Shown in pieces: positions 27,634 to 30,600 of a DNA stretch of 48,295 nt. The first letter of the stretch is position 1. Each line of letters starts with the position of its first letter. The position numbers are program-made. The DNA comes from a virus. Its lineage: Duplodnaviria; Heunggongvirae; Uroviricota; Caudoviricetes. The DNA lies in IMG/VR virus record IMGVR_UViG_2874933748_000005; one strand, written 5' to 3'.

Positions 27634-30600
27634 TCATCCTCTCCGGATAAGGCACGGGCGTAATCTGCCAGTGTTTTCTTGTTGGTTGCTGCACCATCCT
27701 CTTCCTGCAGGCTCGCCAGCAGTGCACTGAGATCCAGCTGCCAGCGGGAAATACTGATGCGCAGCGCCGCCAGCGCATAAACGAAGCAGTCGAGCGCCTC
27801 ATTGCGTCGCTTTTTGCTGTCCCACAGTATTTTTTTCCTGCCATCCACCCATTTTTCGACCTGCTCTTCAGCAGTCAGCTGCTGCGCTTCGGTCAGATCA
27901 AAAATATCCGGGTTATTCGGGAAGTGAACGGCACCGGGAAGCGGTTCATCCCCTTCCGGCGTCAGTGTGAAGCGGTTATAAATCTGCTCTTTCGCGGTAT
28001 CCGTACCGATTTCGGTAAGGTAAACCCCGTTTTTGTTTCGCTTACGAGGCATGCTGGCCACCGGCTTACCGTAGACGGATGCCCCTTTAATGGGGATCAC
28101 CCGGAACAGCCCATGCTTTTTCGAGCGTTCATACACAATGGTCGGGTCAATCCCGCCAATATCCCAGCAGATACGGGATATCGACATTTCTGCACCATTC
28201 CGGCGGGTATAGGTTTTATTGATGGCCTCATCCACACGCAGCAGCGTCTGTTCATCGTCGTGGCGGCCCATAATAATCTGCCGATCAATCAGCCAGCTTT
28301 CCTCACCCGGCCCCCATCCCCATACGCGCATTTCGTAGCGATCCCGCTGGGAGTCGATACCGGCGGTCAGGTAAGCCACACGGTCAGGAACGGGCGCTGA
28401 ATAATGCTCTTTCCGCTCTGCCATCACTTCAGCATCCGGACGTTCGCCAATTTTCGCCTCCCACGTCTCACCGAGCGTGGTGTTTACGAAGGTTTTACGT
28501 TTTCCCGTATCCCCTTTCGTTTTCATCCAGTCTTTGACAATCTGCACCCAGGTGGTGAACGGGCTGTACGCTGTCCAGATGTGAAAGGTCACACTGTCAG
28601 GTGGCTCAATCTCTTCACCGGATGACGAAAACCAGAGAATGCCATCACGGGTCCAGATCCCGGTCTTTTCGCAGATATAACGGGCATCAGTAAAGTCCAG
28701 CTCCTGCTGGCGGATGACGCAGGCATTATGCTCGCAGAGATAAAACACGCTGGAGGGGTCATCCGGCGTCCATTTGAGGCCAAACGGCGTCTCTTTGTCG
28801 CCAAATTTAAGATACTGCTCCTCCCCGCAGTGCGGGCAGGCAACATGAAAACGCATAAAATGCGGGGATTCACTGGCTGCACGCTCAATCTGGCAGGTGC
28901 CTCTCACTTTGGGCGTGGAGCCACGGATGGACTTTGGCCAGACCGAGCCTTCAATACGTTTGTCGCCAAGGAACGTCGGAGAGCCTTCCTGTTCAATATC
29001 CTCATCAAAGGCAGCAAGTTCATCATAACCCGCCACATCCACCGACTTTTCACGGTAGTTTTTTGCCGCTTTACCGCCCAGGCACCAGAAGCCACGACCA
29101 TTGGAAAAACGCTTCATAGTGAGCGTGTTATCCCGGTGCTTTTTGCCATACCACGGAGCCAGCGCCAGCAGCGACGGAATATCGCGGATGGTCGGCTCAA
29201 CGTGGGTTTTCATAAAGTTCTCGGCATCACCATCCGTCGGCAACCAGATAAGTGTGTTGCGCTGCTTATGCTCTATAAAGTAGGCATAAACACCCAGCAG
29301 CATTTTGGAATAACCGACACGGGCAGACTTCACCACATTCACCTCACGGATGTAGTCGCTGCCCATCGCATTCATGATGGCCCGCTGAAAGGGCAGTGTT
29401 TCCCAGCGCCCTTCCTGGTATGCGGATTCTTTCGGGAGATAGTAATTAGCATCCGCCCATTCAACGGCGGTCTGTGGCTCCGGCCTGAACAGTGAGCGAA
29501 GCCCGGCGCGGACAAAATGCCGCAGCCTGTTAACCTGACTGTTCGATATATTCACTCAGCAACCCCGGTATCAGTTCATCCAGCGCGGCTGCTTTGTTCA
29601 TGGCTTTGATGATATCCCGTTTCAGGAAATCAACATGTCGGTTTTCCAGTTCCGGAAAACGCCGCTGCACCGACAGGGGGATCCCGTCGAGAATACTGGC
29701 AATTTCACCTGCGATCCGCGACAGCACGAAAGTACAGAATGCGGTTTCCACCACTTCAGCGGAGTCTCTGGCATTTTTCAGCTCCTGTGCGTCGGCCTGC
29801 GCACGCGTAAGTCGATGGCGTTCGTACTCAATAGTCCCTGGCTGGAGATCTGTCTCGCTGGCCTGCCGCAGTTCTTCAACTTCCCGGCGCAGCTTTTCGT
29901 TCTCAATTTCAGCATCCCTTTCGGCATACCATCTTATAACGGCGGCAGAGTCATAAAGCACCTCATTACCCTTGCCACCGCCTCGCAGAACGGGCATTCC
30001 CTGTTCCTGCCAGTTCTGAATGGTACGGATACTCGCACCGAAAATGTCAGCCAGCTGCTTTTTGTTGACTTCCATTGTTCATTCCACGGACAAAAACAGA
30101 GAAAGGAAACGACAGAGGCCAAAAAGCCCGTTTTCAGCACCTGTCGTTTCCTTTCTTTTCAGGGGGTGTTTTAAATAAAAACATTAGGTTACGGCGAAGA
30201 AGAACGGAAACGCCTTAAACCGGAAAATTGTCATAAATAGCGAAAACCCGCGCGCCTTCCGCCCCGTAACCTGTCGGATCGCCGGAAAGGACCCGCAAAA
30301 TGATAATAATTATCATCTACATGTCACAACGTGCATCTACGCCATCAAACCACGTCAAATAATCAATTATGACGCAGGTATCGTATTAATTGATCTGCAT
30401 CAACTTAACGTAAAAACAACTTCAGACAATACAAATCAGCGACACTGAATACAGGGCAACCTCATGTCAACGAAGAACAGAACCCGCAGAACAACAACCC
30501 GCAACATCCGCTTTCCTAACCAAATGATTGAACAAATTAACATCGCTCTTGTTCAAAAAGGGTCCGGGAATTTCTCAGCCTGGGTCATTGAAGCCTGCCG

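Follow-up and report, generated by a model that had tools for sequence, protein, structure and literature searches.

The 48,295-nt stretch of DNA analysed here (the window; IMG/VR virus record IMGVR_UViG_2874933748_000005, Caudoviricetes) contains a lambda-like prophage in reversed orientation. Next to its packaging site cosQ lies the perfect 7-1-7 inverted repeat TGATAATAATTATCA (30301-30315, no strand). Its identity to a published K-12 sequence gives good support for regarding this palindrome as a genuine binding site, or box, for the host regulator Fur. The best reading of our sequence comparisons is that the box belongs to the cos-terminase module and not to the adjacent accessory genes. 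An earlier note on this DNA had taken the palindrome for a Fur operator that confers iron-responsive expression on two neighbouring plus-strand moron genes. The operator part of that proposal is borne out by the published K-12 copies, whereas the moron part is weakened by the retention of the box where both genes are missing.

The palindrome is present exactly as the earlier note had described it. Its two arms are perfectly complementary around an unpaired central A. The repeat matches all 14 specified bases of the core Fur operator consensus TGATAATnATTATCA, and none of 100 dinucleotide-preserving shuffles of the window yielded an exact core match; with two mismatches allowed, a core match appears in 13 of the 100 shuffles. 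The highest-scoring match in the window to the classical 19-bp Fur consensus GATAATGATAATCATTATC is found at the same place (30296-30314, plus strand; 16/19), and the second-best non-overlapping site scores 14.

In a four-way alignment of the window with lambda and the K-12 prophages DLP12 and Qin, the DLP12 copy is identical to window positions 30296-30340, including the core. The Qin copy differs within the box only at the central base, which it shares with lambda, where TGATAATCATTATCA occupies positions 48452-48466 and again lies 6 bp from cosQ. Both K-12 copies correspond to published Fur sites. In Chen et al. 2007 (PMC2189734), nohB and nohA carry strong Fur clusters, of 25.3 bits (coordinate 579824) and 22.3 bits (coordinate 1634624, position -233), respectively. 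According to the same paper, a nohA oligonucleotide was gel-shifted by 150 nM Fur, in vivo selection of a nohA fragment is credited to Vassinova & Kozyrev 2000, the Fur titration paper of Stojiljkovic et al. 1994 is referred to for nohB, and nohA was chosen as a Fur site that coincides with a sigma-70 model match. In the literature the sites are assigned to the Nu1 homologue, with no discussion of cos or lambda in the text consulted. A review also lists nohB among Fur-regulated genes.

The published nohA position of -233 equals the distance from the box centre to the Nu1 start codon that we measured in the window. In NC_000913.3, the box centres fall at 580601 (DLP12) and 1636600 (Qin), and subtraction of the genome-version offsets, which we take to be 777 and 1976, returns exactly both published coordinates. 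Since the window box is the nohB site and is near-identical to the gel-shifted nohA site, its binding by Fur can be regarded as already known. The Fur-binding assays proposed in the earlier note have, because nohA and nohB are the same element, in effect been done on the window sequence or a one-base variant of it. The sites at nohB/nohD (DLP12) and nohA (Qin) share with the window their 233-bp position and their neighbours (cos, ynfO/ylcI, ydfO/ybcV). They differ in that the K-12 copies reside in decayed prophages, whereas in the window prophage genes A, W and B are of full length and the cohesive end is a variant one. Of 5426 complete E. coli genomes, 4444 contain the stretch between cos and ynfO.

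The comparative survey drew on Nu1-encoding loci (one genome per species, and IMG/VR) and on matches to a cosQ-N20-cosN pattern that did not include the palindrome. Sequences were anchored on cosQ and their far-left flanks were clustered, which gave 56 independent contexts. A box with at most two mismatches occurs in 28 of the 56, compared with 2 of 952 control windows taken from other parts of these flanks; with up to three mismatches, the counts are 35/56 and 7/952. A chance palindrome is ruled out by this positional control together with the shuffles. The box centre lies 11-15 bp from cosQ in the 35 contexts, with a mode of 13. Different genera have unrelated DNA on the left of the box, yet the box still sits 5-7 bp from cosQ. 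It is kept in Citrobacter, Dryocola, Kluyvera, Buttiauxella, Kosakonia, Klebsiella and Phytobacter, and also in an E. coli phage with a 71%-identical Nu1. At the loci from genera other than that of E. coli, no YnfO or DUF1398 homologue was found within 2.5 kb. Phage phi80 has a perfect box, within a stretch annotated as 'cosQ; aka R4 region', and N15 has a degenerate one; neither carries a YnfO or DUF1398 homologue nearby, and in both the adjacent annotated gene reads toward cos. The box is absent (at least six mismatches) from 21 of the 56 cosQ-cosN contexts, including Gifsy-1, which has no Fur box at its cosQ, and satellite-like elements that lack Nu1.

The family consensus, TGtAAaTGATAATyATTATCATTT, agrees with the 19-bp Fur box at 17 of 19 positions and extends to the palindrome AAATGATAATnATTATCATTT. 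Across 68 distinct E. coli-type sequences, no change is seen in the arms, whereas the centre base differs between copies and so does the spacer to cosQ; purifying selection on a dyad operator would be expected to leave just this pattern. Variant boxes remain near the Fur consensus. Retention of the box beside cosQ across genera, whatever the context, is the one result presented here that was not found in the literature searched.

Conservation of the box does not follow the accessory genes. In the 30 box-bearing contexts, the nearest left open reading frame (ORF) of at least 90 aa runs in the same direction as Nu1 in 19 cases and is divergent in 7, while the other 4 have no such ORF; for most phages this excludes the box as promoter of the gene to its left. 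Nor is it inherited with an accessory gene in the manner of a moron promoter, since it is found in many genera, in phi80 and in N15 where YnfO and DUF1398 are missing. The iron-responsive expression of two plus-strand morons suggested in the earlier note is therefore disfavoured. An operator for an autoregulated promoter of the YnfO-like protein was likewise set aside, as the box persists where the gene is absent.

The box goes with the terminase gene, not with the packaging signal on its own. At the level of clusters, it occurs in 30 of 45 Nu1-linked contexts and in none of 5 Nu1-less ones (Fisher p = 0.007, small numbers); counted as distinct sequences, the figures are 112/140 and 2/16. The Nu1-less cos sites are mostly satellite-like, with the order capsid gene, cos, small helix-turn-helix gene, and the box is missing from 14 of these 16 sequences. 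According to Feiss et al. 2015, cosQ is a 7-bp site, and termination requires cosQ, cosN and I2. Gifsy-1 and the Nu1-less cos sites lack the box, and termination needs these three elements only; we conclude that the box is not needed for packaging. The palindrome is also not part of cosQ, an assignment we could rule out: cosQ is a separate 7-mer (30288-30294), the palindrome begins 6 bp beyond it, and many lambda-type cos sites do without the box. The earlier note had conceded that its proposal would fall if the palindrome proved to be a conserved packaging element in related phages; the box is indeed conserved with cos, but packaging does not depend on it.

Several observations were made alongside the survey. 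At seven Nu1-less, capsid-linked cos sites (L159, L167, L204, L206, L245, L253, L271), an intrinsic terminator, GGCCGGAGAAATCCGGCTTTTTT, abuts cosQ at the position of the Fur box. Four satellite-like sequences, L167 (4162-4197, plus strand, and 4722-4757, minus strand), L204, L206 and L245, carry two inverted cosQ-cosN signatures 560-775 bp apart. In Gifsy-1 (L280, ~29690-29720), a palindrome that by eye resembles a Zur box, TTGTTATATTGTAACAA, is located ~30 bp left of cosQ, upstream of the divergent STM2610. A Buttiauxella locus (L034) has two perfect TGATAATCATTATCA boxes ~45 bp apart, 15-75 bp left of cosQ. In phi80 (L279), a coding sequence at 44960-45190, ~0.9 kb from the cos-proximal Fur box, is annotated 'putative Fur-regulated protein'. 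Contigs with 96-100% identity to lambda Nu1 turned up in assemblies of unrelated organisms (Kitasatospora, Paenibacillus, Pseudomonas, Shewanella, Chromatium, Limosilactobacillus and others); these contigs, some of ~48.4 kb, look like lambda DNA contamination (L012-L020, L027, L028, L032, L038, L040, L043, L044, L048, L050-L052, L054, L055, L057, L062, L064).

Along the plus strand of the window, the order is the Nu1 start codon (30075), cosB, the cohesive end, cosQ, a 6-bp spacer, the box, a 148-bp leader, the DUF3950 gene and the DUF1398 gene. The location beside cos, as given in the earlier note, is supported by a megablast alignment that places window position 30265 at the last lambda base, 48502, and by the contiguous cos of the DE3 lambda prophage, which is 97% identical to the window. 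On the minus strand, cosQ occupies 30288-30294; its sequence, GGGTCCT, and its lambda coordinates, 48473-48479, are those reportedly given by Wieczorek & Feiss 2001. The 12-nt cohesive-end sequence of cosN (GGGCGGAAGGCG; GGGCGGCGACCT in lambda) was placed at 30253-30264 on the minus strand by alignment to lambda and DE3 with annotated cos, and the box is 36 bp from the cosN nick. The cosB region and Nu1 leader (30076-30252, minus strand) are ~97% identical to lambda, from which the R3/I1/R2/R1 substructure is presumed. They are followed on the same strand by the gene for the small terminase subunit Nu1 (29530-30075; Pfam Phage_Nu1, E = 2.4e-101). On the other side, the box centre lies 156 bp upstream of the start codon of the YnfO-like gene, and 149 bp separate the end of the box from that ORF.

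A sigma-70-like promoter candidate overlaps the box on the minus strand (30300-30327), with a -35 GTGACA, a 16-nt spacer and a -10 TATCAT (10/12), and points across cosQ and cosN into Nu1. Its -10 element and spacer lie inside the box, and its predicted start falls within cosQ. It is the only match of at least 9/12 between Nu1 and the YnfO-like gene. On the plus strand, no sigma-70 match of at least 9/12 was found from cos to the YnfO-like start codon; an 8/12 candidate there, AGGACC-17-TATCAT, uses cosQ itself as its -35. The check for promoter elements overlapping the palindrome that the earlier note suggested gives a 10/12 candidate on the strand facing Nu1 and only the 8/12 candidate on the strand facing the morons.

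We see roughly an even chance that the box is a Fur operator that gates transcription running over cos into the terminase genes and that, in E. coli-type phages, may also serve divergent transcription. Fe2+-Fur on the box would occlude or block sigma-70 transcription that starts at or crosses it and would otherwise proceed through cosQ, cosN and cosB into Nu1-A. In the window, the blocked promoter would be the GTGACA-16-TATCAT site. Such a block would keep terminase transcription shut in iron-replete lysogens, and iron starvation would relieve it. Transcription in the other direction, toward the YnfO-like gene, may likewise respond to bound Fur in E. coli-type phages, in which case the box may form part of a shared divergent control region; divergent promoters that share one Fur box are common. 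Operator control of the terminase genes is favoured by the exact core, the 16/19 score at the best site of the window, the correspondence of the K-12 homologues to published sites, the signs of selection on the box (constant arms, enrichment over control windows, an extended Fur box as family consensus), the linkage to Nu1 and the orientation of the promoter candidate. A further point in its favour is a co-response in one data set, in which ybcVW and nohB rose together on induction of a DNase toxin and the authors related the gene set to Nac, Fur and CRP.

Other observations weigh against this operator model. About a third of the Nu1-linked cos contexts have no box. Late genes of lambda normally rely on pR' and Q antitermination for their transcription, and a Fur-gated promoter or block at cos has no obvious purpose. 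The lambda version of the promoter candidate reads GTGATA at -35 and TATCAC at -10, and would thus be weak. Outside the E. coli/lambda cluster, -35 quality upstream of the -10-like hexamers in the box is at background (mean 2.7-2.8 versus 2.5; 35 box-bearing contexts surveyed), so that a conserved local promoter is not demonstrated. A sigma-70 promoter conserved across genera was accordingly rejected for either direction: toward Nu1 the -35 scores as background, and the other way there is only the default AGGACC supplied by cosQ. The literature searched, which left the primary Fur papers outside its scope, yielded neither expression data from a fur mutant or under iron limitation nor transcription start sites for Nu1, nohA or nohD. 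It also contained no fur-mutant or iron-limitation data for ynfO or ylcI and no report connecting ynfO with Fur, and a search combining Fur, chromatin immunoprecipitation (ChIP), prophage and terminase returned no matches.

Expression hints from the literature are weak and mixed, and none supports Fur repression of the DUF1398 gene. Strong downregulation of ybcV was reported under copper stress, while iron-uptake genes rose, and ydfO was induced together with sodB by an ionic liquid; neither response looks like Fur derepression. A 2026 paper on phi80 and GR536 describes lysis of a phi80 lysogen in iron-restricted medium; Fur is unmentioned and phage was made under all conditions, and we did not use it as evidence.

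The alternatives to operator control of the terminase genes can be weighed against the same data. It is unlikely, in our estimate, that the box is instead the operator of a Fur-repressed promoter driving the plus-strand YnfO-like DUF3950 and DUF1398 genes as iron-responsive morons. The box does lie on the correct side of these genes, 149-156 bp upstream of the YnfO-like start codon; lambda, DLP12, Qin and the window have a leader of ~150 bp that hardly differs between them; and the AGGACC-17-TATCAT site offers a weak plus-strand promoter. The frequent sharing of a Fur box by divergent promoters and the co-response of ybcVW with nohB also fit. However, the same box position recurs in seven other genera, in phi80 and in N15 with neither gene nearby, the left ORF usually runs co-directionally with Nu1 (as do the annotated coding sequences in phi80 and N15), and the plus strand is devoid of a promoter match of at least 9/12 between cos and the start codon. 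The DUF1398 gene, moreover, has a 9/12 promoter-like site of its own at 30685-30712, and the behaviour of ybcV under copper and of ydfO with sodB runs contrary to Fur derepression.

That the box is an accessory packaging element, with Fur bound 6 bp before cosQ serving as an IHF-like architectural factor or as a roadblock that slows terminase and so aids cosQ recognition and cosN nicking, strikes us as improbable. It would account for the box being the outermost conserved element of cos, at a near-fixed distance from cosQ in 35 contexts with unrelated left DNA, and for its inclusion in what the phi80 annotators call the R4 region. Judging from the packaging direction in Feiss et al., the translocating motor would meet the box just before cosQ. 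A capsid-gene-linked locus whose Nu1 is only 39% identical (L056) also keeps a perfect box. Yet natural cos contexts without the box are numerous and include Gifsy-1, the Nu1-less sites largely lack it, and the 7-bp cosQ suffices with cosN and I2 for termination. The distance of the box from cosQ can be 2 bp longer or shorter, whereas that between cosQ and cosN is reportedly strict (Wieczorek & Feiss 2001). Still less probable is a functionless AT-rich palindrome, incidentally bound by Fur and carried along by the abutting cos. No phenotype has been reported for the box, many phages dispense with it, and its position could reflect descent together with cos. The contrast between invariant arms and a varying adjacent spacer and centre base argues against such hitchhiking, as do the enrichment over control windows, the closeness of variant boxes to the Fur consensus, and the survival of the box in genera whose left flanks are otherwise unrelated and whose spacers to cosQ differ in sequence as well as length.

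Known systems offer partial parallels to a Fur operator in the cos-terminase module. The right end of lambda, with the old 'R4 region', is alike in that the lambda box is 6 bp from cosQ and the perfect phi80 box falls within 'cosQ; aka R4 region'; the difference is that cosQ proper is the separate 7-bp GGGTCCT, and the box is missing at many functional cos sites. The IHF site I1 in lambda cosB is likewise a site for a host DNA-binding protein embedded in a lambda-type cos region. In contrast to the Fur box, for which no such role is shown, I1 has a demonstrated role in packaging initiation, and it is found across cosN from the box, flanked by R3 and R2. In Stx1-converting lambdoid phages, the stx1 promoter is reportedly repressed by Fur (Calderwood & Mekalanos 1987), which would make it another host Fur box in a lambdoid prophage under iron-dependent control. 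The stx1 box is said to overlap the toxin promoter upstream of its cargo, whereas the window box is tied to cos and Nu1, is 150 bp from the nearest cargo and persists without it.

For the window itself the consequences are small, the palindrome being the published nohA/nohB Fur site in a lambda-like prophage. The comparative result may merit a modest follow-up: an intact Fur box forms the outermost conserved element of cos in lambda, phi80 and many of their enterobacterial relatives, whatever its neighbours, and the literature searched contained no role for it in lambda biology. If Fur occupancy affects terminase expression or packaging, phage maturation would be linked to host iron status; if not, the box would be a clean example of a conserved regulator site awaiting a function. 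A bolder proposal, and in our view a long shot, is that the Fur box is an accessory part of cos that couples host iron status to packaging, with Fe2+-Fur pausing or positioning the terminase motor or gating terminase synthesis in lysogens. Fur would then be the second host factor at cos after IHF, and the presence of an intact Fur box beside unrelated right arms in at least ten enterobacterial genera would be explained.

The remaining features of the locus agree with the earlier description of two AT-rich plus-strand ORFs ~150 bp from the palindrome and opposite to the late genes. One encodes a YlcI/YnfO-family small protein (DUF3950, 77 aa; 30464-30697, plus strand; Pfam PF13132, E = 2e-20, and K-12 ynfO and ylcI annotations). 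The other encodes a DUF1398 protein of the YbcV/YdfO/lambdap78 family (30740-31165, plus strand; Pfam PF07166, E = 3.3e-43), whose likely start at ATG 30755 would give 136 aa, as in K-12 ydfO. Their GC contents are 0.44 and 0.32, compared with 0.51 for the whole window. The phage structural genes, among them the lambda Nu1, A, W and B homologues, are on the minus strand. In the lambda reference, NC_001416, the YbcW homologue lambdap79 is annotated (47738-47944, plus strand), but a 64-aa ORF of the YlcI/YnfO family at complement(48109..48303), adjoining the Fur box, is not.

The stretch from the box to the YnfO-like gene was judged to hold neither a known RNA nor a structured leader: the fold z-score is -0.08, and Rfam returned only sub-threshold microRNA-model matches, on the cosB inverted repeat. 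These matches (30094-30161, both strands) reflect that R3/R2-like repeat and not an RNA gene. The cohesive end at 30253-30264 differs from that of lambda at positions 7, 8, 10, 11 and 12, and the GGGCGGAAGGCG variant is common to eight distinct contexts of the collection. Ten different cohesive 12-mers occur in the collection, all with GGGCGG at positions 1-6, an invariance that agrees with the view of Feiss that selection acts on the left half only. Beyond the accessory genes, ~170 bp past the DUF1398 stop codon, lies an IS2-like insertion sequence (31342-32650) with minus-strand InsC/InsD-like ORFs and 33-nt imperfect terminal inverted repeats at 31342-31374 and 32618-32650; lambda has bor and the lysis genes there.

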